A stretch of DNA of 64,000 bases, from IMG/VR virus record IMGVR_UViG_3300010965_000002, positions 64,001 to 128,000 of that record, one strand, 5' to 3'. Position numbers and translations under genes: made by a program. This stretch comes from a virus. This document shows positions 19,265 to 54,801 of the stretch, piece after piece. Each line of letters begins with the position of its first letter. The first letter of the stretch is position 1. The notes beneath the pieces are model-generated. The model saw nothing but the letters and a program-made list of their open reading frames with translations. It was not told the DNA's origin and did no database searches.

Positions 19265-20158
19265 ATGAGTTCACGCTCTTTAGAAGCGCGTAGCGTAGGC
19301 AATGCAGTTAAATGGAGTGAGCTCCTGCTTAACACTTATGGACCTACAACATTGCGCAATTACATTGACGCAAAGGACAGTGCAATGTCCTTGTTGTTTG
19401 ACACCACAGTTGCCTCGATCAACGCCGTTCTGGTTCAACATACAAATGCAATAGACACGCTTACCACCAGTAAGCTAAATCGCACAGGTGATACTGCGCA
19501 CGGTCTTAGTAGCGATGGTTGGTTTACCTCTATTGCCGACACAGGCTGGCGCACTTCTTACGGCAGCGGTTTCACACAATCGAATGCCACACGTTTGGAA
19601 GTAACAGGCTCTGCGATCTTGTCAGCGGGTAATGGTGTCGAAAGCTCACAGTATGTGGCTTTGGTCACGGCCATGCGCTCGGTCTTCCGATTCCAGCAAG
19701 GGTCAGCCGTAACTGACTTCTATCGTGACCCTAACGGTGACGTTGGCTTGGTAGACAGCGTGCTGGGTAGTATCTGGCGTATGGTCGCCTCGACTGGTGA
19801 TCTGGAATTCAACCGCCGTGTCAAACTCAATCTGAGCACCATTCCAGGCAGCGGTAGCTACCTTGGTATTGATGCCAACGGTTATTTGGTGCGCTTGTCT
19901 ACGCCTCCGCCAGTTGGTACTCCTGTTGGAACTCCAGTCGGAACACCCGTTGGTACGCCAGTAGGAACACCTCCAGTCGGTACACCAGTAGGTACTCCTC
20001 CAGTAGGTACTCCTCCGGTTGGAACACCAGTTGGAAGTCCTGTCGGTACGCCGCCGGTTGGAACTCCTCCAGTAGGTACACCAGTTGGTTCACCAGTTGG
20101 TACTCCGCCAGTAGGCACACCACCCGTTGGAACGCCAGTCGGCAGTCCAGTGGGTTGA
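19265..20158 (+). CDS. fibre-like virion protein with C-terminal (P)PVG(T/S) repeat tail
   Basis: N-terminal KLNRTGDTAHG fibre-like segment; 19 PVG units ending PVGSPVG-stop. Confidence 0.75.
   Translation: MSSRSLEARSVGNAVKWSELLLNTYGPTTLRNYIDAKDSAMSLLFDTTVASINAVLVQHTNAIDTLTTSKLNRTGDTAHGLSSDGWFTSIADTGWRTSYGSGFTQSNATRLEVTGSAILSAGNGVESSQYVALVTAMRSVFRFQQGSAVTDFYRDPNGDVGLVDSVLGSIWRMVASTGDLEFNRRVKLNLSTIPGSGSYLGIDANGYLVRLSTPPPVGTPVGTPVGTPVGTPVGTPPVGTPVGTPPVGTPPVGTPVGSPVGTPPVGTPPVGTPVGSPVGTPPVGTPPVGTPVGSPVG
19904..20155 (+). repeat. coding tandem repeat, 19 PVG units
   Basis: Counted from DNA; codons differ from unit to unit; higher-order (PVGT PPVGT PPVGT PVGS)x3. Confidence 0.95.
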
Positions 20159-29854: not shown

Positions 29855-30247
29855 ATGGCCCAACTAATTTGGAATGTACAGAACGCGGTAAGCGTAACAA
29901 TCACCCCAGGCATCGGCACCGTCGCTGCGGCTGGAAATGTCACAGTAAACCCAACGGTTTCAACAACCTACACGCTGACGGCAACTGACCGTCGTGGCCG
30001 TCAAACGGTTGCAACCGTGGTCTTAGGGCCACCTGCTGTTGGCACTCCACCTGTCGGCACACCACCAGTGGGAACTCCTCCGGTTGGAACACCGCCTGTA
30101 GGGACGCCGCCCGTCGGTACTCCACCTGTCGGCACACCACCAGTGGGAACTCCTCCGGTTGGAACACCTCCTGTAGGGACGCCGCCCGTCGGTACTCCAC
30201 CTGTCGGCAGTCCAGTTGGAAGCCCTGTAGGCTCGCCAGTGGGTTAA
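29855..30247 (+). CDS. small Ig-like domain protein with PPVGT repeat tail
   Basis: LIWNVQNAVSVTITPG..PTVSTTYTLTAT Ig-like strand pattern, then 14 PVG units ending PVGSPVG-stop. Confidence 0.75.
   Translation: MAQLIWNVQNAVSVTITPGIGTVAAAGNVTVNPTVSTTYTLTATDRRGRQTVATVVLGPPAVGTPPVGTPPVGTPPVGTPPVGTPPVGTPPVGTPPVGTPPVGTPPVGTPPVGTPPVGSPVGSPVGSPVG
30047..30244 (+). repeat. coding repeat: 10 PPVGT + PPVGS + 2 PVGS + PVG, with a 75-bp higher-order duplication
   Basis: 75-bp block at 30047 repeats at 30122 with one substitution; third partial copy at 30197. Confidence 0.95.
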
Positions 30248-31593: not shown

Positions 31594-31908
31594 ATGGCAA
31601 TCAAAATCATAGGTCGCGGCATTCATGCGTCGGCGACCCCAAACGAAATTGTCTACACACCGCCTGGTGATGTGATAAGCGCAACCATTGCGACAGGTAC
31701 GGTTGAAAACATACTGCCGATAGGCGCTAAGTTGTTTATACGCATCGGTGGTCGTGGCATTTGGGTAATCAAAGGCAAAGATATTCCAGTCATGGGCGCG
31801 CCTCTCGTGCTGCCACCCATTACACTCAATCCTGGTGAATGGTTGGAAGCGTGGAGCGATACACCAAATGCACTTGACATTAACATAACGATTGGTGAAC
31901 AACGATGA
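31594..31908 (+). CDS. small beta-sandwich virion protein (104 aa)
   Basis: VYTPP..LNPGEWLEAWSDTPNALDINITIGE pattern; between fibre genes. Confidence 0.6.
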   Translation: MAIKIIGRGIHASATPNEIVYTPPGDVISATIATGTVENILPIGAKLFIRIGGRGIWVIKGKDIPVMGAPLVLPPITLNPGEWLEAWSDTPNALDINITIGEQR

Positions 31909-32414
31909 GCGGCTTTTTATTCCCCACAATGAGTCAAGGACCCAGCGACGTGTATATGGCGCGTGGTCGTCTGAGCCTCAGCGGTATTGGTGACTGGTAT
32001 AACGCTACGGCGTTAGGTGCTTATGAAGCACCTGCCAGTGAGTACACCAGTTATTCACACGCTGGTCCTTACATTCAAGATGGTCTGCTGCAAGTCCACC
32101 GTAGTGGTGCCTTTGTAGTTCAGTATCTTACGTATGCAAACGGCCAAACGTATTCTCGCGTGAACAGCAACGTAACAGGCAGCGGCGTTTGGACAGCCTG
32201 GACATTGTTAAGCGGTGGCGTGGTTGTAGGTACTCCAGTTGGTACTCCAGTTGGTACTCCAGTTGGAACGCCCGTAGGTACTCCAGTTGGTACTCCAGTT
32301 GGTACTCCAGTTGGTACTCCAGTTGGAACGCCCGTAGGTACTCCCGTAGGTACTCCAGTTGGAACGCCCGTAGGTACTCCGGTAGGTACTCCAGTTGGTA
32401 GTCCAGTGGGCTAA
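31905..32414 (+). CDS. pyocin-knob-like fibre domain protein with PVGT repeat tail
   Basis: GLLQVHRSG..VQYL..TYSR..WTAW knob motif; 15 PVG units ending PVGSPVG-stop. Confidence 0.75.
   Translation: MSGFLFPTMSQGPSDVYMARGRLSLSGIGDWYNATALGAYEAPASEYTSYSHAGPYIQDGLLQVHRSGAFVVQYLTYANGQTYSRVNSNVTGSGVWTAWTLLSGGVVVGTPVGTPVGTPVGTPVGTPVGTPVGTPVGTPVGTPVGTPVGTPVGTPVGTPVGTPVGSPVG
32235..32411 (+). repeat. coding repeat: 13 PVGT + PVGS + PVG (12-bp unit)
   Basis: Counted from DNA; units CCAGTTGGTACT, CCAGTTGGAACG, CCCGTAGGTACT intermixed. Confidence 0.95.
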
Positions 32415-32428
32415 TTAGGACAAATGTC

Positions 32429-33025
32429 ATGGCATATACTTTAATAGTAGAAAAAGAAGAGGCTCGGATTGTTTTCATTCGTGATGCAACCGCGCCTCTA
32501 CTGCTCGACGCTTTGTGGCCGCCTGTTGGATATAACTATCTGCACTGGCCCTTTGCGGTGTCCGACGAAGTGCTAGCCGCGCCGTGGAACTACGTGATTC
32601 AAGGCAACAAAATTGTTGCCTCGACTTATACCTTTCAAAGTAACGCTATCGAAAACGCAAAACGTGGTGGATTACTTGTACAGCTTGCGCGGGCAACTAA
32701 TAGACATCGTCGCATGGTCTTGAAGGAAGATATACAAGGTCAAGCCGATGTGTATCGTCTGAAAGCAGACGAGGCTACACGCTTCTTAGCAGATACTCAA
32801 CAAAGTCCAAGTGCATTTCCTTGGCTGTCTGAGACTGCGGCGTTTGAAAGCCTCACCCTTGAGCAATCCGCAAATCAGATAATGTTTCGACATACGCAGC
32901 AGCAAGCAATCCTGCGGCATACTGAGAATCAACGTCGGTGGTTTACACGTCGTATCCTGACAGCGGGTGTTAACGAACTTGAAACAGTAAGAACAGAGTT
33001 GACAGACTATGAACGCAGAGGTTAA
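32429..33025 (+). CDS. tail fibre assembly-like protein
   Basis: QADVYRLKADEATRFL..FPWLSETA..LEQSANQI pattern typical of genes following fibre genes. Confidence 0.6.
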   Translation: MAYTLIVEKEEARIVFIRDATAPLLLDALWPPVGYNYLHWPFAVSDEVLAAPWNYVIQGNKIVASTYTFQSNAIENAKRGGLLVQLARATNRHRRMVLKEDIQGQADVYRLKADEATRFLADTQQSPSAFPWLSETAAFESLTLEQSANQIMFRHTQQQAILRHTENQRRWFTRRILTAGVNELETVRTELTDYERRG

Positions 33026-33698
33026 ACCTTCATGGTGGTATGGTGATGATAGTACCAAGCAAGTGCCTGGTCAATTAGTACCTGCCGATAATCCAGTGCC
33101 GTATTGGACAAGCCAATTACTGAATGAGTCAGAAGCAGATGCCATCTACCATGCAGTGATTGCCCAATATACCCGCAAACAATTGCATCGTGTGTACAAC
33201 CCAGATGGTCAAGGCGATCAAATCAATCTTGACAGTCGATACACGCATGCCTACGACTTCTACCAAGTTCCTGGTGCTGCGGACATTGAAGCCCGCTTCA
33301 ACGCGGAGGTCGCACGCTGTGCAAGAACGTGGTGGAACAAAGAATCTGTGCCTGTGTACACGCCGCAGATTCTGGGCTATGAAGAAAAATGTCGGTTCCG
33401 CACTCATTGTGACAACAGTATTTGGAATGACCAAGGCTGGACTCAGAATGACCCGATGCGAGACGTTACGGCCTTGCTGTACGTCAGTGATTGTGTGCCA
33501 ACGGTCACCCGGCCGAACCAGCACAGCGGAGGTGAGCTAGTGTTAGATAACGTACAAACGGCAAATGGCCCAGTACGTATAGCTCCCAAAAAAGGTCAGT
33601 TTGTGATGTTCCCGTCACATCCTGTTTACCGTCACCAAGTAACGCCAGTCACTCGCGGTTATCGTATCGCGTTTGTAAACTGGTGGAGCCTAAGGTAG
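33009..33698 (+). CDS. 2OG-Fe(II) oxygenase, prolyl 4-hydroxylase-like
   Basis: HCD..TALLY..GGEL..MFPS..RHQV..GYRIAFVNW (HxD...H...R). Confidence 0.9.
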   Translation: MNAEVKPSWWYGDDSTKQVPGQLVPADNPVPYWTSQLLNESEADAIYHAVIAQYTRKQLHRVYNPDGQGDQINLDSRYTHAYDFYQVPGAADIEARFNAEVARCARTWWNKESVPVYTPQILGYEEKCRFRTHCDNSIWNDQGWTQNDPMRDVTALLYVSDCVPTVTRPNQHSGGELVLDNVQTANGPVRIAPKKGQFVMFPSHPVYRHQVTPVTRGYRIAFVNWWSLR

Positions 33699-33704
33699 AT
33701 CGAA

Positions 33705-34409
33705 ATGCTCAAACTAAAACCGCAATGGTCTTTACGTCAACGCTCTGATGGTAGCTGGTCCCTGACTAGCGAGAATTACCATCAGGCAGTTCTCCCCGAA
33801 TATGCCGCTATTCTCCAAAAGCTAGTTCCAGGTGTTGAACCAGACACTTTGACCGACGCTGAATTCGATCAGATTGAGTACCTCACTGATCGCGGCTTCC
33901 TGAATGTTGATAACCACCCCGATGCGCCAGCTTGGGAATTGTGTGGTGCCAACTTCCATTCTGTTCAGGAACAACTCAAGCACGTTACCTTCTTCGTTGT
34001 TGACACTACGCCTAACGGTGTCGGTGCAACAATCCGTGAGACTCTCTTAACTTCTGGTCTACAGGAACAAGAGATTGACCCACGTCTGACTATCGCAGTC
34101 AGTGATTCATACCAGACGTTACCAAATGTTAAGGGTAACATGCTGCCAGTTGTTTGCAACCGTATGCGCGTGACTGTCGGCCCAATGGTGTTTCCATGGG
34201 GTACGCACGTTCGTGACAGTGTACTTGCGTCAGATCATTATCTGCCACAGCCTGGATACCAATTGCCTCATGCCTTTGACCAACTGCAACGCGGTTGGCT
34301 GGCTGTTGCCATATTGCAATTCATAGGCACCAACAAACTACGCTATGTCAATTTCTTTGTTGAATACAACATGGCACAACAGGAGTTCAAGCTATGGCCT
34401 GCGAAATAA
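33705..34409 (+). CDS. TOMM/LAP-type leader peptide-binding protein (RRE plus E1/ThiF-like scaffold), stand-alone
   Basis: LKPQW..LTSE..YAAILQKL..YLTDRGFL..AWELCGAN..LTIAVSDSY..VTVGPMVFP follows the cyclodehydratase C-protein N-terminal consensus as I recall it; no CxxC, no YcaO domain. Confidence 0.68.
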   Translation: MLKLKPQWSLRQRSDGSWSLTSENYHQAVLPEYAAILQKLVPGVEPDTLTDAEFDQIEYLTDRGFLNVDNHPDAPAWELCGANFHSVQEQLKHVTFFVVDTTPNGVGATIRETLLTSGLQEQEIDPRLTIAVSDSYQTLPNVKGNMLPVVCNRMRVTVGPMVFPWGTHVRDSVLASDHYLPQPGYQLPHAFDQLQRGWLAVAILQFIGTNKLRYVNFFVEYNMAQQEFKLWPAK

Positions 34410-34825
34410 GACAGTGCAACGCCAGTGATGAACGGCAGCTACGCAGGTGGCTGTTAGTCCATGATCCTGTGTTTGCAATGCACCGCCAACTCAAGGACTA
34501 CTTTCTGGCACCTACTGAAAGTTTCGGTGTGCTCTGTACGTTTGTAGAGAACGAAATCAAGAGCGCCTGTTTCTTTTCAACGTATTCAAACAAGTCGTTT
34601 ATCCACCTTTACATTGGTGACGTATCTGATCTTGAAGCCTTTCGTCAGTACATGAAGTTTCCATGTCAAGCATTCTTGCGTCCTGAACACGCACCGGATG
34701 CAGCATCAGGTTGGAAAAATGTGTTGGACGTAACACCAGGCTTTATGGTAGATCATCCAGCGTACAACGGTGTGTTCTCGCGTGTTGCTCCTCGTTTCGC
34801 AGGCGCTGTCTACGAACATCCTTGA
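34394..34825 (+). CDS. hypothetical, possible GNAT-fold protein
   Basis: N-terminal EIRQCNASDERQL resembles GNAT beta1-alpha1; no clear acetyl-CoA loop. Confidence 0.45.
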   Translation: MACEIRQCNASDERQLRRWLLVHDPVFAMHRQLKDYFLAPTESFGVLCTFVENEIKSACFFSTYSNKSFIHLYIGDVSDLEAFRQYMKFPCQAFLRPEHAPDAASGWKNVLDVTPGFMVDHPAYNGVFSRVAPRFAGAVYEHP

Positions 34826-36264: not shown

Positions 36265-36465
36265 ATGACATTACGCGACATCTACAATCAGGTTGTGGCC
36301 GAAGACAATTCGCCAGCCCAATGTGAAAACCAGGCAATGGCTATTCGTCGTTATGCTGAACAAGAGTTGGGCGTGACAGACCCCGACAAGCTGCACCAGT
36401 TGTTCAACGAAACGTATGAACTGTTAAATGACGGCACGCCGTTCGACGAACAGCCTGCGGCTTAA
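36265..36465 (+). CDS. small acidic protein (66 aa)
   Basis: AAGGA RBS before ATG 36265; track start at 36160 overlaps the desaturase. Confidence 0.7.
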   Translation: MTLRDIYNQVVAEDNSPAQCENQAMAIRRYAEQELGVTDPDKLHQLFNETYELLNDGTPFDEQPAA

Positions 36466-36576: not shown

Positions 36577-37506
36577 ATGGAACGCTTGTATCGTGGCTAT
36601 AACGGTGTGGCTGACGTACCCCGCACAGCAGTTGACCAAACATACGAATTTTGGTTCGATAAACCTCGTGACATCATCAGCTTAAGGGCAGCCAGCATTC
36701 GTGCTGCAAAGGAATTCGGGCAGAAGTACGCTGACAAAGAGATTGTCATTCTCTACTCAGGCGGCATGGACAGCGAATGGCTGTGTGAAGCCTTCTACTT
36801 AGCAAAGGTGCCATTTAGACCTTTGATCGTGGACTACAATAACGAGAACTCTCATGATCTGTATTGGGCTCGCCGCTACCTACGCCGTCGCGGTATTACC
36901 AACGCAATCGAATGGCAGTTCGACCTACGTAGCTGGTACTCCTCACAAGAGCAGTTTGAAATAGCTGAACGTTGCCAAATGAGTGAGCTTGCCTACAGCG
37001 GCCAGTTCCGGGCAATGTTGGAGTTTCAATCACCTGATCGCATCTTCTTGAATGGCTATGACGAGCCCGTGATTACCGCTGACGATAGTGGTGCGGAACG
37101 CACATGGAACTTGACCTACAACGAACGGCATTTCGCAATCCACAAGTTCATGGATGCCTATGGTTTTAACACACAGCCTGGTGGTTGGGTAGACGCCAAT
37201 GTGTTCGCTGCATATACGCACTGTCCTATGTGGCAGATGCTGGTTTCAAATCTTGTGCAACCTCAGGTGTGGAATTCCGAGCTAATCAAGTTCCAGATTT
37301 ATAGCCATTCCTTCCCATTCATGGAAGCGCGTACAAAGTACACGGGGTTTGAGTCCATGCTTGACGTGATCGTGCCTGCCACGAAGAAATGGCGCGAGTA
37401 CACGGACAAGACCTATGGAACGCAATGGCTGCAAGACTGGTCACGCCCCATCAAAGACGTGTGGGCTGAGTTACATGGAGACACACCATATGTACGACCT
37501 TACTAA
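36577..37506 (+). CDS. PP-loop (adenine nucleotide alpha-hydrolase / asparagine synthase-like) ATPase 1
   Basis: ILYSGGMDSE; C-terminal ARTKYTGFE; ATG 36577 preferred over track start. Confidence 0.8.
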   Translation: MERLYRGYNGVADVPRTAVDQTYEFWFDKPRDIISLRAASIRAAKEFGQKYADKEIVILYSGGMDSEWLCEAFYLAKVPFRPLIVDYNNENSHDLYWARRYLRRRGITNAIEWQFDLRSWYSSQEQFEIAERCQMSELAYSGQFRAMLEFQSPDRIFLNGYDEPVITADDSGAERTWNLTYNERHFAIHKFMDAYGFNTQPGGWVDANVFAAYTHCPMWQMLVSNLVQPQVWNSELIKFQIYSHSFPFMEARTKYTGFESMLDVIVPATKKWREYTDKTYGTQWLQDWSRPIKDVWAELHGDTPYVRPY

Positions 37507-42855: not shown

Positions 42856-44439
42856 ATGACTAAAGGCTTTGATGTCGTTTTAATAACAGACTGTAGCTCA
42901 CAAGGTGGTGCAGTTTGGGGCCGGAGTGCTGGTGCTTATAGACTGGCAACTGAACTACGTAAGCAGGGGCTCACTGTTCAGGTGATTGACTGGTTTAACC
43001 ACATAATCATCGAACAGGGTCTGCTACTGCTTTTGCTCAAACGTTTTATTGGCGACAACACTCTGTTCCTAGGTTTCAGTTCTACCTTCATGAACAGTGC
43101 GTTGTACGCAAGCCGCAATCATCCTTGGTCAGACTCAGTGCTGACCGTCGGTGATGACCAGGGCTTTAATCGCAAATTTGCTTGGGGTACAACCATCTAT
43201 GGAATACCTCCAGGCATCTTGGCTAAACTGCGTGAACTGCTGAAAGAGAATTGGCCTAAGCTGCCAATCGTTACTGGTGGTAGCCGCACACAGGAGACTG
43301 ACCCTTTTCCAGACGTGATCTGTGTAGGCTATGGTGAGCGCCATATGCTTGATTATGTCAAGTGGTTACAAGGCAAGCATCCTTTCTTCATGACACGCAA
43401 AACGCCTGCTGGTCAAATGGTCTTAGACTATGACACTAAAGGCGATGGCTTCGATTTCATTAACAGCGAGATTGAATGGGTGCCTGGTGACTGCGTTCAA
43501 CCTGGAGAAGCACTACCGATTGAGATAAGTCGAGGTTGTATCTTCCGGTGTAAATTCTGCTCCTTTCCGTTGAATGGCAAGAGTAAGAACGACTACATGA
43601 AGAATCGGGACAAGTTAGTAGCAGAGCTAACGCGCAACTACGAGCAGTTTGGGACGACCCGTTATATCTTCTCAGACGACACCTACAACGACACACAAGA
43701 AAAGGTAGAGTTCGTTTATGAAGTGTCGCAGCAACTCCCATTCAAGTTGGAGTATGCCACGTACATCAGGCTTGATCTGTTGGCTGCTAACAAAGATCGA
43801 CGCCAGGCTGAGTTGTTAAAAGCCAGCGGTTTGAAAATTGCCTTCTTTGGTATTGAGTCCTTGAACAGAAAAGCGGCTGCTTCTATTGGCAAAGGCATGG
43901 ACACTGAGAAATTGGTTGATACCCTGCAGTGGTTGCGTGATGATGTGTGGAAGCATGATGTCATCACAACGGGTGGTTTCATGTTGGGCTTACCACACGA
44001 CACCTACGAAACAATGAATGCGTGGTTAGAACGTATTAGCAACCCTAACTTTCCGCTACACACTTTCAATCTTTCACCTATTGGTATTGCCAATAAAAAG
44101 ATGGTGCAACGGGCGTTCTACTCGGAGATTGAAAACGAGCCTGAGAAATATGGCTATGTACTCAGTGAAGAACGTCTGGAATACTGGGACAACCCACGAT
44201 TCGGCACCACGTTTGAAGGATGCAATGAGTTGGCGACCAAAGTACATGATTATGCAAAACAAACAGGTCGGCTGTGCATGAGTACCCACATGATGGTGTC
44301 AACTATTGGTCTAGGCTTTGACTACGACAAGCATCGTGGTCTTGGTATTGAAGGCGTAATGCGTCAAGGTCTGCTACATCGTACCCGCGTTCAGTTCTTA
44401 GACTATTTGAAAGATTTGGTGAACATATGGCCCGAGTAA
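42856..44439 (+). CDS. cobalamin-binding radical SAM enzyme
   Basis: ISRGCIFRCKFC (CxxxCxxC); N-terminal Rossmann-like domain with GFSSTF; YIFSDDTYN; GIESLN. Confidence 0.9.
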   Translation: MTKGFDVVLITDCSSQGGAVWGRSAGAYRLATELRKQGLTVQVIDWFNHIIIEQGLLLLLLKRFIGDNTLFLGFSSTFMNSALYASRNHPWSDSVLTVGDDQGFNRKFAWGTTIYGIPPGILAKLRELLKENWPKLPIVTGGSRTQETDPFPDVICVGYGERHMLDYVKWLQGKHPFFMTRKTPAGQMVLDYDTKGDGFDFINSEIEWVPGDCVQPGEALPIEISRGCIFRCKFCSFPLNGKSKNDYMKNRDKLVAELTRNYEQFGTTRYIFSDDTYNDTQEKVEFVYEVSQQLPFKLEYATYIRLDLLAANKDRRQAELLKASGLKIAFFGIESLNRKAAASIGKGMDTEKLVDTLQWLRDDVWKHDVITTGGFMLGLPHDTYETMNAWLERISNPNFPLHTFNLSPIGIANKKMVQRAFYSEIENEPEKYGYVLSEERLEYWDNPRFGTTFEGCNELATKVHDYAKQTGRLCMSTHMMVSTIGLGFDYDKHRGLGIEGVMRQGLLHRTRVQFLDYLKDLVNIWPE

Positions 44440-52572: not shown

Positions 52573-53804
52573 ACACGCTAGCGCATCGCATAAAAGAGTT
52601 GCTACCTCAAGGGTTTGCAACAATGTCAACCATTGATGCTGTGTCTGCGTCTAATGCCTTCATCTATGACAGTGAAGGCCGTCGGTACATCGACTTTGCA
52701 AGCTCCTCTTCGGCTATGAATCTGGGTCACCGTCATCCAGAAGTTGTCGAGGCCATGCAAGACCAGTTGGACAAATTTGTTCACACCTTCTTTCAGCAAG
52801 TGCCGTACAGCAGCTATCTGGATTTGGTTGAGGTGCTGCATCGTATTACACCTGGCGAGTTCCGCAAGAAGACAGTGCTGAATTCCACAGGCTGTGAAGC
52901 CGTTGAAACGGCTGTGCGTATTGCCAAGGCACATACCAAACGGCAGACCGTGTTGTGCTTCACAGGTTCGTTTCACGGTCGTAGCTTGCTAGGTTCTGCG
53001 CTGTCAAACAATGCAGGTACAGCCCTACACGATCTGAACAACATCGTGTGCGCCCCATTCGTGTCAATGGATGACGAGCCTTTCGATGCAATCGCGTATG
53101 CAAAGCAGTTGGCGAACCTAGTGCCGCTGGACAAGATAGCTGCGATCATCATTGAACCCGTGCAAGGCGAATCTGGTTTCAACGTGGTGCAGAAACCCTT
53201 CTTGGATTGGCTGCGTTGCCTTGCCACAAACAACGGTACAGTCCTAATCGTTGATGAAGTGCAATCAGGATTGGCGCGTACAGGTACCATGTTTGCCTTA
53301 GATCAGTATTACGTGGAGCCTGACATCATCTTGGTGTCGAAGACATTGGGTGGCGGCTTGCCGTTGTCAGCCGTTGTAGGCCGCGCAGAAATTATGGATG
53401 CGCCCACTACGTTTGGCGGTACATTCAGCGGTACACCTTTGGCAGTTGCGGCGGCATTACGCGTTATTGAGGTCATCGAGACTCAGCAAGTGTGCCGTAC
53501 CTCACAGACGTTGGGTGTACTGTGCATGAGCAGACTGCAGGACTTCGCCAAGTACCCTTTCGTCAAAAAGATGCGCGGCTTAGGCTCAATGCTGTCGTTG
53601 GAAATCGACGTGGAGAATTATCCTCAGTTGACGACCACCATACAACGTCGGGCACGCGACAACGGCTTGCTGTTGCTGAGTGCAGGTATCAACAAGTCGC
53701 GCATTCGGTTCCTGTATCCGCTGACGATTGAAAAATCGGTGCTAGACGAAGGACTGACCATACTCGACAACGTATTCAAGGAACTTGCGAATGAACTACG
53801 GTAA
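52569..53804 (+). CDS. class III PLP aminotransferase (GabT-like)
   Basis: YIDFAS..LGHRHP..STGCEAVE..EPVQGESG..DEVQSGLARTG..KTLGGGLPL..TFSGTP. Confidence 0.95.
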   Translation: MNTLAHRIKELLPQGFATMSTIDAVSASNAFIYDSEGRRYIDFASSSSAMNLGHRHPEVVEAMQDQLDKFVHTFFQQVPYSSYLDLVEVLHRITPGEFRKKTVLNSTGCEAVETAVRIAKAHTKRQTVLCFTGSFHGRSLLGSALSNNAGTALHDLNNIVCAPFVSMDDEPFDAIAYAKQLANLVPLDKIAAIIIEPVQGESGFNVVQKPFLDWLRCLATNNGTVLIVDEVQSGLARTGTMFALDQYYVEPDIILVSKTLGGGLPLSAVVGRAEIMDAPTTFGGTFSGTPLAVAAALRVIEVIETQQVCRTSQTLGVLCMSRLQDFAKYPFVKKMRGLGSMLSLEIDVENYPQLTTTIQRRARDNGLLLLSAGINKSRIRFLYPLTIEKSVLDEGLTILDNVFKELANELR

Positions 53805-54801
53805 GTATAGCCTTGACGACCACTACCGTTGGGGCTTTGGTGATTCTTGGTTCAACATGCCAGAGAATCCACGGGATTGCTTTCGAGTGTCTCTGGGTTC
53901 GTGCAAACGTGGACCTCTGTCGCTGCGTGAAGAATGCGTTATTGCTGCAAAGCAGTTGTCTGAAACGATTACCAAGCCTCTGTTGGTGGGACTATCCGGT
54001 GGCTTTGACAGTCAGGTGGTGTGTCTCTCTTTCATGGCGGCTGGCGTACCGTTCACACCTGTGGTGCTGCGCTTAACCAGCGATAGCGGGGCGTTTTACA
54101 ACCAGACTGACTACGCTAACGCCATGAAGTTCTGTAGCCTCAAAGGCATTGTGCCTTTGGTGGAGACACTGAACCTGGACGAGTTCTATCGTGGTGAAGG
54201 TCTGCGGCTCATTCAGGACAACTGCATCACGGTGGCTGAGATAGCTGTGCAACTGCACTTGGTAATCAAGTACAAGGACACTCATGCGTATGTCAACGGA
54301 GGCGGTGACCCTACGCTCTCGTTCATGAATGGCAAGCTGGTGTACTCGCTTATGCCTACTCCGATTCAACAGTACATGATTAACAACGGCATCGAAGGAT
54401 GTCTCAAGTTTTTCATGTATTCGCCTGAACAGATAGCGGCGTATCTGCAACATCCTGTGATGCAGATGTACAACGCGGGCTGCGAGACACTACACGACGG
54501 CTACAAAGGTCCAAACATCTTTACGTTCGTGGTCAAGCCCATGATGTACTTGAACCAGTGGCCGGAGTTGGTGCAGCGAAAGAAACAGACAGGCTTTGAG
54601 CAAGTTCCCTACTTTGCAAAAATGCGGGAGCTTACATTTAGCTTGAACGAGCACATAAATCCAAGGGCGAAGAAGATCACTTGGACCTATGAGCAATTAG
54701 TTGACCACCTAATGAATGGTCAAGGCGCGATTAAAACATGGAGAAGTGTTGATGAACACGATACATCTGGACCCTACCCTAGCGTATTCACAAGCGTTTA
54801 A
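53791..54801 (+). CDS. PP-loop ATPase 2, paralogue of 36577
   Basis: VGLSGGFDSQ; C-terminal RKKQTGFE; AAGGA RBS before ATG 53791. Confidence 0.8.
   Translation: MNYGKYSLDDHYRWGFGDSWFNMPENPRDCFRVSLGSCKRGPLSLREECVIAAKQLSETITKPLLVGLSGGFDSQVVCLSFMAAGVPFTPVVLRLTSDSGAFYNQTDYANAMKFCSLKGIVPLVETLNLDEFYRGEGLRLIQDNCITVAEIAVQLHLVIKYKDTHAYVNGGGDPTLSFMNGKLVYSLMPTPIQQYMINNGIEGCLKFFMYSPEQIAAYLQHPVMQMYNAGCETLHDGYKGPNIFTFVVKPMMYLNQWPELVQRKKQTGFEQVPYFAKMRELTFSLNEHINPRAKKITWTYEQLVDHLMNGQGAIKTWRSVDEHDTSGPYPSVFTSV

Follow-up and report, generated by a model that had tools for sequence, protein, structure and literature searches.

An RRE–E1-like protein beside the tail-fibre genes of an uncultured phage as a candidate docking scaffold for an AsnB-like PP-loop enzyme

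To our knowledge, scaffold proteins that join a RiPP recognition element (RRE; RiPP, a peptide made on the ribosome and modified post-translationally) to an E1-like domain have been seen only alongside YcaO cyclodehydratases or, in antibiotic pathways of bacteria, as active adenylases. Gene clusters for thiazole/oxazole-modified microcins (TOMMs) are defined by an E1-like C protein together with a YcaO D protein (PMC4603692). In TclI, a stand-alone scaffold of an RRE and a ThiF-like domain, the leader binds to the N-terminal domain, and two different enzymes dock in turn on the C-terminal one (PMC10634744). Here, a protein of comparable layout (gene 33705–34409, hereafter the scaffold) is described from an uncultured phage of wastewater/freshwater. 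The window, i.e., the whole stretch of DNA that was analysed, comprises 64,000 nucleotides (bases 64001–128000 of the 176,943-base IMG/VR record IMGVR_UViG_3300010965_000002, rated ca. 72% complete by CheckV), and the scaffold gene is located at the junction of the tail-fibre genes and a large island of tailoring-enzyme genes. The best reading of the locus, to which we would give about an even chance, is that the protein is a non-catalytic RRE–E1-like docking scaffold serving an AsnB-like PP-loop enzyme encoded nearby, and that a separate oxygenase of the prolyl 4-hydroxylase (P4H)/PKHD type acts on proline-rich repeats in neighbouring proteins. The features central to this reading are listed below, with the evidence for each; VIA denotes a structure search independent of Foldseek.

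33705–33911, + strand: RRE domain of the scaffold (residues 1–69), a PqqD-like winged helix (AlphaFold2 (AF2) model, VIA)
33948–34409, + strand: E1/ThiF-like domain of the scaffold, shortened and degenerate (residues 82–234 and stop) (VIA, alignments)
36577–37506, + strand: PP-loop ATP pyrophosphatase of 309 aa, the likely catalytic partner (motif, AF2 model, VIA, gene coupling, complex model)
33009–33698, + strand: 2-oxoglutarate (2OG)-Fe(II) oxygenase of P4H/PKHD (PiuC/YbiX-like) type, 229 aa (PF13640, phrog_61, Protein Data Bank (PDB) matches, motif)

The scaffold (234 aa) had no match in Pfam, PHROG, NCBIfam or the PDB (phmmer and profile), and nothing useful was obtained by tblastn against 50,697 phage records or by an IMG/VR scan with the scaffold-family alignment A1. 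Its 21 close homologues share 51%–91% identity and are all about 235 aa long. A profile search of 1.84 billion cluster representatives gave 39 family matches, nearly all of them stand-alone proteins of 217–248 aa and none fused to another domain; the 176,943-base record contains a single copy. The fold was more informative. For the AF2 model built from the homologue alignment (predicted local distance difference test (pLDDT) 84.1), the top Foldseek matches were LynD (4v1t) and TruD (4bs9) with E about 2e-11, followed by MccB, McbB and PaaA. VIA also aligned 224 residues with LynD (Z 12.6; model 1–234 against LynD 6–306) and gave Z 10.2 for MccB. In ESM Atlas, both the language-model features (0.92) and the database's own model (TM-score 0.76 over 230 residues) led to clusters annotated as ‘TOMM precursor leader peptide-binding protein’. 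An earlier note, made from the sequence alone, had proposed the RRE plus E1-like layout of azole cyclodehydratase C proteins and suggested structure prediction against TruD and LynD; the N-terminal RRE followed by an E1-like domain was recovered by all these approaches, with an end-to-end match to the RRE and E1-like part of both proteins.

Each domain was also recognisable separately. Residues 1–69 form the three-stranded sheet and three-helix winged-helix fold of RREs and, in VIA, superposed on the RREs of TigE, lasso B1 (6jx3), TbiB1 (5v1u), ThcOx, MibB and PqqD with Z 6.2–7.4 (root-mean-square deviation (rmsd) 2.3–2.7 Å over 65–69 residues); with the PbtF RRE (8t19; Z 5.8) included, the series spanned Z 5.8–7.4 and rmsd 2.3–3.8 Å. 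Residues 82–234 matched MoeB (Z 10.1, 141 residues aligned, 3.2 Å) and PaaA (Z 8.9) within an E1 series, including Atg7 and NAE1, of Z 8–10. The BFVD database provided one weak viral look-alike, a ThiF-like protein of crAss001 (E 2.8e-5, TM-score 0.42). The hhalign comparison of the family alignment with E. coli MoeB covered the last 34 columns only (2.2% probability), and the PqqD hidden Markov model (HMM) PF05402 had no match in the record; many bona fide RREs also fail this model.

Because the RRE fold is a winged helix, the N-terminal domain might instead bind DNA or RNA (e.g., as an operon regulator), or the protein might, rather than being peptide-directed, contribute to the fibre module as a structural component or as an assembly factor. 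Winged-helix domains unrelated to RiPPs (NO66, NGO1945, Rv2067c) scored Z 5.4–6.6, and the gene always adjoins tail-fibre genes, as such a role would predict. However, only RiPP E1-like proteins have this order of two domains and align over the full length, and the gene lies within the enzyme island and disappears with it. This explanation has a very low probability.

The E1-like domain shows few of the features of an active enzyme. As the earlier note had read from the sequence, the protein stops at 234 aa and lacks CxxC; its only cysteines are C80 and C151, neither of which is invariant. In a pairwise alignment with E. coli MoeB, which is only suggestive for the loop region, D100-T-T-P-N-G-V-G107 lies opposite the nucleotide loop G38-L-G-G-L-G43. 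This stretch is invariant in the close clade and wholly different in the distant members. Across 44 family sequences, P160 is the sole invariant residue, and G159, Q90, L114, E23, P6, G43, E78, L187 and L194 are conserved in at least 90%. The 141 E1-like residues aligned by VIA correspond to MoeB 20–239 and leave about 70–80 MoeB core residues without a counterpart. PF00899 (ThiF) matched neither the scaffold nor any other part of the 176,943-base record. Thus, of the hallmarks of E1 adenylyltransferases, the scaffold has neither the Gly-rich loop with a PF00899 match nor a Zn site (two CxxC) or catalytic cysteine. Given the missing CxxC, the loop that is not conserved family-wide, the absent core residues and the lack of a PF00899 match, the E1-like domain is probably inactive and non-catalytic, as far as models and alignments can tell. 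The same deficits, together with the lack of a catalytic cysteine and a Zn site, count against the alternative that the scaffold is an active, unusual adenylating E1 resembling MccB and PaaA, which would act on the C-terminal Gly carboxylate of the tailed proteins described below as E1s do on ubiquitin-like proteins. Every tailed protein ends in Gly-COOH, the best fold matches include MccB and PaaA, and D100/T102/N104/G107 and N152-R153 are invariant in the close clade, but we regard an active E1 as highly improbable.

YcaO (PF02624) had no match in the 72%-complete record, in which the positive controls did match, or in the precomputed Pfam calls for 10–20 kb around the gene in nine related contexts. 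The earlier statement that no YcaO is encoded in the window therefore extends to the whole record, as its suggested full-genome search returned none. TOMM leader-binding and cyclodehydratase models (NCBIfam, Pfam) matched none of 44 family members at E ≤ 1, a level at which it should be considered that HMMER filters discard most matches above E 0.1. As the published definition demands a YcaO D protein (PMC4603692), which is absent here, the locus does not count as a TOMM cluster; what it has in common with one is the fold and probably also the logic. The earlier label ‘TOMM leader-binding protein’ hence holds at the level of fold and fails at the level of sequence and cluster. The scaffold could still be a C- or F-type protein that makes azolines or thioamides with a YcaO whose gene lies in the host or in the 28% of the phage genome that the record lacks. 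The closest folds are LynD, TruD and the TOMM leader-binding clusters, and the record is incomplete, both of which would suit this possibility. Against it, no YcaO was found in 177 kb or in the Pfam calls of the nine contexts, no TOMM HMM matched, a B-type dehydrogenase was not noted, and the tails contain no Cys, their Ser/Thr residues coming after Gly and before Pro. Overall, a YcaO partner encoded elsewhere seems very unlikely.

Comparison of loci pointed to a different partner. Nine related metagenomic contexts were read for gene neighbourhoods, and a BLAST comparison was added. All contexts read as phage-like, with the scaffold gene always just downstream of the tail-fibre module. The typical order is a PF12571 fibre gene, a gene for 104–105 aa, a tailed protein, a protein of about 200 aa, usually a 2OG oxygenase gene, and the scaffold gene. 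The most constant companion is a PP-loop protein of about 305 aa, found in all eight contexts with a full-length scaffold copy and enough downstream sequence (the window, L001, L002/3, L004, L005, L010, L015 and a 718-kb JGI contig). In five of these (L002, L004, L005, L010 and L015), the PP-loop start overlaps the scaffold stop, and the scaffolds of L004, L005 and L010 share only 25%–28% identity with the window copy. In the window, L001 and the 718-kb contig, three genes are inserted between the two. The earlier idea of a substrate adaptor for non-YcaO enzymes is supported by these observations, although it had not singled out the likeliest partner, this glutaminase-less AsnB-like PP-loop enzyme that is translationally coupled to the scaffold in most relatives.

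An alignment of 24 homologues of the PP-loop protein showed an invariant S61-G62-G63-x-D65-S66 and conserved Lys/Arg residues. Its AF2 model (pLDDT 91.6) was closest in VIA to human ASNS (Z 14.6), E. coli AsnB (14.1), beta-lactam synthetase (13.5), carbapenam synthetase (11.5) and TsnB9 (10.7), and generic PP-loop enzymes (Z ≤ 9.5) scored clearly below this group. A glutaminase domain is absent from the 36577–37506 product, and PF00733 remained below threshold. The lasso macrolactam-cyclase model NF033561 touched one of the 24 homologues (E 0.0066), and the protein has half the length of a lasso cyclase. With the SGGxDS PP-loop and the predicted AsnB-like synthetase fold, the protein is best modelled as an N-type PP-loop ATP pyrophosphatase with an AsnB-type synthetase-domain fold. 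A paralogue of 338 aa (53785–54801, ca. 25% identity) lies at the far end of the island, with weak NAD-synthase and tRNA-methyltransferase HUP matches; no second scaffold gene occurs in the record.

A sulfur relay of the Urm1/TtuB type, in which an E1-like protein, a PP-loop enzyme and a Gly-ended carrier act together (PMC2651780), was rejected in view of the degenerate E1-like domain and of a PP-loop fold nearest to AsnB (Z 14) rather than to TtuA/NcsA (Z 7.5–8.3).

Two further genes tend to accompany this pair. The 34394–34825 gene, which overlaps the scaffold stop in the window, encodes 143 aa, and its homologues come after the PP-loop gene in L002 and L015. A protein of 160–163 aa takes the same position in L004, L005 and L010 (hhalign to the 143-aa group, 79% probability). 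Structural neighbours of the 143-aa protein in ESM Atlas were RimI-type GNATs (TM-score 0.65–0.71). The protein had no Pfam match, and hhalign found no relation between the 143-aa and 179-aa proteins and the Pfam-positive GNATs of L010 and L015 (probability < 1%). The GNAT fold, a label drawn solely from the ESM Atlas neighbours, is thus a lead only. A B12-binding (class B) radical S-adenosylmethionine (SAM) protein of 527 aa (42856–44439) is kept with the scaffold/PP-loop block in L002, L004 and L005 (29%–42% identity), and L010 has three radical SAM genes in place of this type.

Several other observations concern the block. On the JGI contig (718,316 bases, with P0076), a 234-aa gene is accompanied by genes for 144 and 178 aa, a desaturase, a 301-aa PP-loop protein, AspH-like genes, a radical SAM gene and a TauD gene, and this block lies beside an open reading frame (ORF) of 3463 aa; the contig could be a chimera of the assembly, belong to a host genome that carries a prophage, or represent a phage of very large size. 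An acidic ORF of 60–69 aa always follows the first fatty-acid-desaturase-like gene (window 36265–36465, L001 3862–4071, L002 13569–13751). The copies in the window and in L001 are homologues with 80% identity, the ORF is missing from L015, and it is not convincing as a precursor peptide. In the wastewater runs X6, X9, X10 and X2, contigs of close relatives diverge from the window exactly at the scaffold stop (34405–34460; loose ends at 34409), which fits a rearrangement of gene order among lineages, with the PP-loop gene either directly next to the scaffold or displaced by 2 kb. In one study, wastewater RNA libraries yielded contigs that cover 33501–34409 with 90%–95% identity, and X9 (801 nt) spans the 3' end of the 2OG gene to scaffold residue 199. 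These contigs come from relatives and may be DNA carry-over, showing neither transcription nor transcript structure, and uncovered stretches in the sequencing runs carry no meaning.

The complex model of the scaffold and the PP-loop protein reached a score of 0.78, against 0.57 for the best of three controls (margin +0.21, just over the rule), a mark that 58 of 80 solved complexes attained, as did 2 of 110 mismatched pairs. Three runs shared at least 93% of contacts, with a pLDDT of at least 88 for the partner. The predicted interface is wholly on the E1-like domain (residues 86–94, 127–128, 145, 161–165 and 207–216, including Q90, H93 and F163-P164-W165). We know of no solved complex between an RRE–E1-like scaffold and an AsnB-like enzyme; therefore, memorisation is unlikely to explain the pass. 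The model supports, but does not show, binding of the two proteins.

The folds, the motifs, the lack of YcaO and ThiF in the record and the conserved gene coupling are shown by these data, and from them we infer the physical pairing, the chemistry and the substrate. The proposed mechanism follows by analogy with TclI (PMC10634744) and with the lasso B1/C pairs, the roles of neighbouring genes being drawn from folds and weak HMM matches. The N-terminal RRE of the scaffold would bind a peptide segment of the substrate, and the shortened E1-like domain, with its nucleotide loop lost, would serve as a docking platform. The client would be the glutaminase-less AsnB-type PP-loop protein rather than a YcaO, and it would activate a carboxylate of the bound peptide or protein by adenylation and turn it into an amide, which could be a simple amidation, an amine conjugate or an isopeptide. 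The GNAT-fold protein (34394–34825) is a possible second client. The pairing is further supported by the L008/L009 lineage, in which half of the E1-like domain and the PP-loop gene were lost together.

Several points weigh against this proposal. In the window and L001, the PP-loop gene is not adjacent but 2.1 kb downstream. The complex model passed narrowly, and the 0.57 control had retained the scaffold, suggesting that the scaffold is ‘sticky’ in the model; nor does conservation at the interface significantly exceed that elsewhere (p 0.11 and 0.77). Part of the genome is missing from the record. The invariant D100/T102/N104/G107 loop and N152-R153 kept in the close clade could mark a ligand site with residual catalysis. 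Finally, the PVG tails, if they are the substrates, are proline-rich and would fit poorly with the beta-strand pairing typical of RRE ligands.

These tails belong to three proteins of the window, which carry (P)PVG(T/S) repeats and end in SPVG-stop:

31905–32414, + strand: fibre-module protein of 169 aa ending in (TPVG)14-SPVG-stop; candidate substrate
29855–30247, + strand: protein of 130 aa ending in (PPVGT)n-SPVGSPVGSPVG-stop; candidate substrate
19265–20158, + strand: protein of 297 aa ending in a (P)PVGT/S repeat and SPVG-stop; candidate substrate

As previously noted, they share no N-terminal leader: their N-terminal parts showed no mutual similarity in blastp (E ≤ 10). The end motif [ST]P[VI]G[ST]P[VI]G-stop terminates unrelated fibre-module proteins in several phage lineages, and the L002 homologue of 31905–32414 ends in SPVGSPVG. 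The tails with the end motif are as follows:

Window: 19904–20155, 30044–30244 and 32232–32411
L002: 6136–6540 and 8187–8711
L007: 2–151
L008: 8004–8405
L015: 7065–7424

The terminal [ST]P[VI]G-stop is kept even as the repeat unit varies among PPVGT, TPVG, SPAPVG, PTPTPG and SPV. Its survival through these changes suggests selection on the very C-terminus, in which case the free end itself might be a recognised signal.

Natural variants provided a mixed picture. In the L008/L009 lineage (11 contigs of the same product; L008 9917–10462), the scaffold gene is broken after profile residue 141, keeping the RRE and half of the E1-like domain, and a deletion that reaches as far as a holin/spanin-like lysis cassette has removed the island together with the PP-loop gene. 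Retained are the 2OG gene, the protein of about 200 aa and an ORF ending in (SPV)n-SPVGSPVG-stop. The island is therefore dispensable, and the unit of oxygenase and tail can outlast its loss; with the RRE still present, this lineage is no proof that the oxygenase acts independently of the RRE. In L010, the locus comprises the scaffold, the PP-loop gene, a sulfotransferase gene, three radical SAM genes and GNAT genes, and the protein in the ‘tailed’ slot ends in AGGG. With the scaffold and its companion kept without a tail in L010 and a tail kept without the island in L008/L009, the comparative sequence signal for recognition of the C-terminal PVG tag by the scaffold appears mixed.

These variants bear on the main inference of the earlier note, namely that the scaffold is a general adaptor that reads the SPVGSPVG tag at the C-terminus and hands the tails to the P4H-type enzyme and to further enzymes of the island, including the radical SAM protein, with the PP-loop enzyme as one client or none. 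The 2OG gene is immediately upstream of the scaffold gene in the window, L001, L002, L004, L007 and L015; the [ST]P[VI]G-stop is kept across lineages with the differing repeats PPVGT, SPAPVG, PTPTPG and SPV; and TclI serves two enzymes (PMC10634744). However, the 2OG gene is located elsewhere in L005 and is absent near the scaffold in L010, no Pfam-positive 2OG gene adjoins the scaffold in the 718-kb contig, and no tail was seen in the distant clade. L008/L009 also keep the 2OG gene and tail after the loss of the E1-like half, a weak objection with the RRE retained. On balance, a general adaptor is rather unlikely.

A narrower possibility combines the preferred docking scaffold with these tails. 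If the tails are the scaffold's substrate, C-terminal activation would follow, since the terminal glycine provides the only carboxylate of a tail. The scaffold and the PP-loop enzyme would then form a new machine for protein-tail maturation that captures the SPVGSPVG-COOH ends of unrelated virion fibre proteins and activates the C-terminal Gly. The PP-loop enzyme would adenylate this carboxylate, and the tail would become amidated, amine-capped or cross-linked to the virion, with proline hydroxylation and further island enzymes decorating the same tails. We consider this machine improbable in this full form; if real, it would represent ubiquitin-like C-terminal activation by a non-E1 enzyme, with an E1 relic as the adaptor.

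The 33009–33698 product matched PF13640 (2OG-FeII_Oxy_3; E 1.6e-15, 58.3 bits against a gathering cut-off of 27), phrog_61 (E 1.8e-17) and, in the PDB, PKHD/PiuC-type hydroxylases (3dkq/9qn0, E 4e-4). Its H133-x-D135, H209 and R219 are intact and align to the iron and 2OG ligands of the PDB PKHD hydroxylases. The sequence thus identifies a PF13640 oxygenase of P4H/PKHD type, and the earlier description as prolyl-hydroxylase-like is right at the family level. A PF13640-type gene was present in every locus with proline-rich repeats in the fibre module (the window, L002, L004, L005, L007, L008 and L015), and L010 had neither a 2OG gene nor a coding-strand proline-rich repeat within 20 kb; across the loci read, the oxygenase tracks these repeats. 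The enzyme, acting separately from the scaffold, would most likely hydroxylate prolines in the repeats of neighbouring fibre-module proteins. This role as a peptidyl-proline hydroxylase of the repeat tails is the simplest reading, by analogy with the proposal for the viral prolyl 4-hydroxylase of PBCV-1 (Eriksson et al. 1999). According to PMC7019647, the PBCV-1 enzyme was proposed to act on proline-rich viral proteins, and its in vivo substrate was never confirmed. Both are small, virus-encoded P4H-type 2OG oxygenases from genomes that also encode proline-rich repeat proteins; PBCV-1, in contrast, infects eukaryotes, and the phage enzyme is nearest to bacterial PKHD/PiuC-type hydroxylases. 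The P4H-type gene and the proline-rich tails could provide a simple bacterial-virus case for viral proline hydroxylation, a question that the work on PBCV-1 did not close.

The left half of the window encodes myovirus tail proteins (sheath, baseplate, lysin and fibres), and the + strand carries every gene from 24198 to about 55000. Kinship to cultured phages is distant, the best being 25% identity of a baseplate protein to 227-kb Xanthomonas/Erwinia phages, and near-identical DNA is present in wastewater and freshwater metagenomes. Around the scaffold, the gene order on the + strand is 31905–32414 (PVG tail), 32429–33025, 33009–33698, 33705–34409 and 34394–34825, tightly packed with a 17-nt overlap between 32429–33025 and 33009–33698, a 6-nt gap before 33705–34409 and a 16-nt overlap between this gene and 34394–34825. 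The remaining two features of this segment are as follows:

32429–33025, + strand: conserved protein of 198 aa between the tailed fibre-module gene and the oxygenase (BLAST, position)
34394–34825, + strand: protein of 143 aa, third member of the conserved block (position of homologues, hhalign, ESM Atlas)

Homologues of 32429–33025 (BLAST) lie upstream of the 2OG gene in L001, L002 and L004. Proteins of about 200 aa occupy the same slot in L007, L008 and L015, and one lies ahead of the scaffold gene in L010; the homology of these four was judged by position and a C-terminal motif seen by eye. The 32429–33025 protein had no family match in Pfam, PHROG or NCBIfam. The earlier description of 33009 and 33705 as following the last PVG-tail gene and its chaperone is hence correct in order, with the word chaperone being a label by position only. 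Further into the island are many small Asp/Asn-beta-hydroxylase-type cupins (PF05118; 38152–38784, 40840–41415, 42314–42853 and paralogues up to 49457), two FA_desaturase proteins, a TauD-type enzyme and SDRs (short-chain dehydrogenases/reductases). Such cupin- and desaturase-type families also act on lipids, e.g., LpxO-type enzymes; part of the island may therefore target lipids or glycans rather than peptides.

A phage RRE scaffold, a pair of RRE–E1-like and AsnB-like proteins, or a combination of phage, RRE and tail fibre was not found in the literature, which is weak evidence given the incomplete coverage. As judged from the sequences, what appears new is a small, phage-restricted family of RRE–E1-like scaffolds with a non-YcaO partner, a minimal and apparently inactive family that is genetically locked to an AsnB-type adenylating enzyme. 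This hints at an undescribed system of peptide or protein modification. If the pairing is true, some phages may direct machinery of the RiPP kind at their own virion proteins, or at a peptide yet to be seen. With 234 and 309 aa, the two proteins are small, both have high predicted fold confidence, and the pair is directly testable in E. coli.

Among known systems, the best whole-length structural matches are the TOMM C proteins and the N-terminal halves of fused cyclodehydratases (McbB, BalhC and domains 1–2 of LynD/TruD), which have the same order of RRE and E1-like domain without ATP-binding residues and presumably likewise bind the substrate and assist an enzyme that uses ATP. The phage scaffold differs from them in lacking a YcaO partner, the other half of the C and D pair that defines TOMMs (PMC4603692), HMM-level similarity and CxxC, in its length (234 aa versus about 300–330 aa) and in being encoded by a phage beside tail-fibre genes. 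The Ocin-ThiF-like F proteins (TclI, TbtF and PbtF) are likewise stand-alone fusions of an RRE and a ThiF-like domain; their clients are a YcaO and a dehydrogenase, whereas the conserved neighbour of the phage scaffold is an AsnB-like PP-loop enzyme, and there is no sequence-family match. The lasso B1 and C proteins also combine an RRE protein with an adenylating enzyme of AsnB fold that makes an amide from a carboxylate of the peptide, the chemistry proposed here, and B1 structures (6jx3, 5v1u) are among the top RRE matches of the scaffold (Z 7.2–7.3). In contrast, the phage RRE bears an extra E1-like domain, the PP-loop protein has only 309 aa and no N-terminal AsnB-like domain, and the lasso B2 protease (transglutaminase-like, PF13471) had no match in the record. 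MccB and PaaA (reviewed in PMC12250964) similarly unite an RRE (‘peptide clamp’) with an E1-like fold in one stand-alone protein and act on peptide C-termini or carboxylates; they are active enzymes with a Gly-rich loop and a Zn site, both of which the scaffold lacks. Compared with all these systems, the phage pair, if real, would extend the logic of a leader-binding scaffold and an ATP-using enzyme to a new enzyme class.

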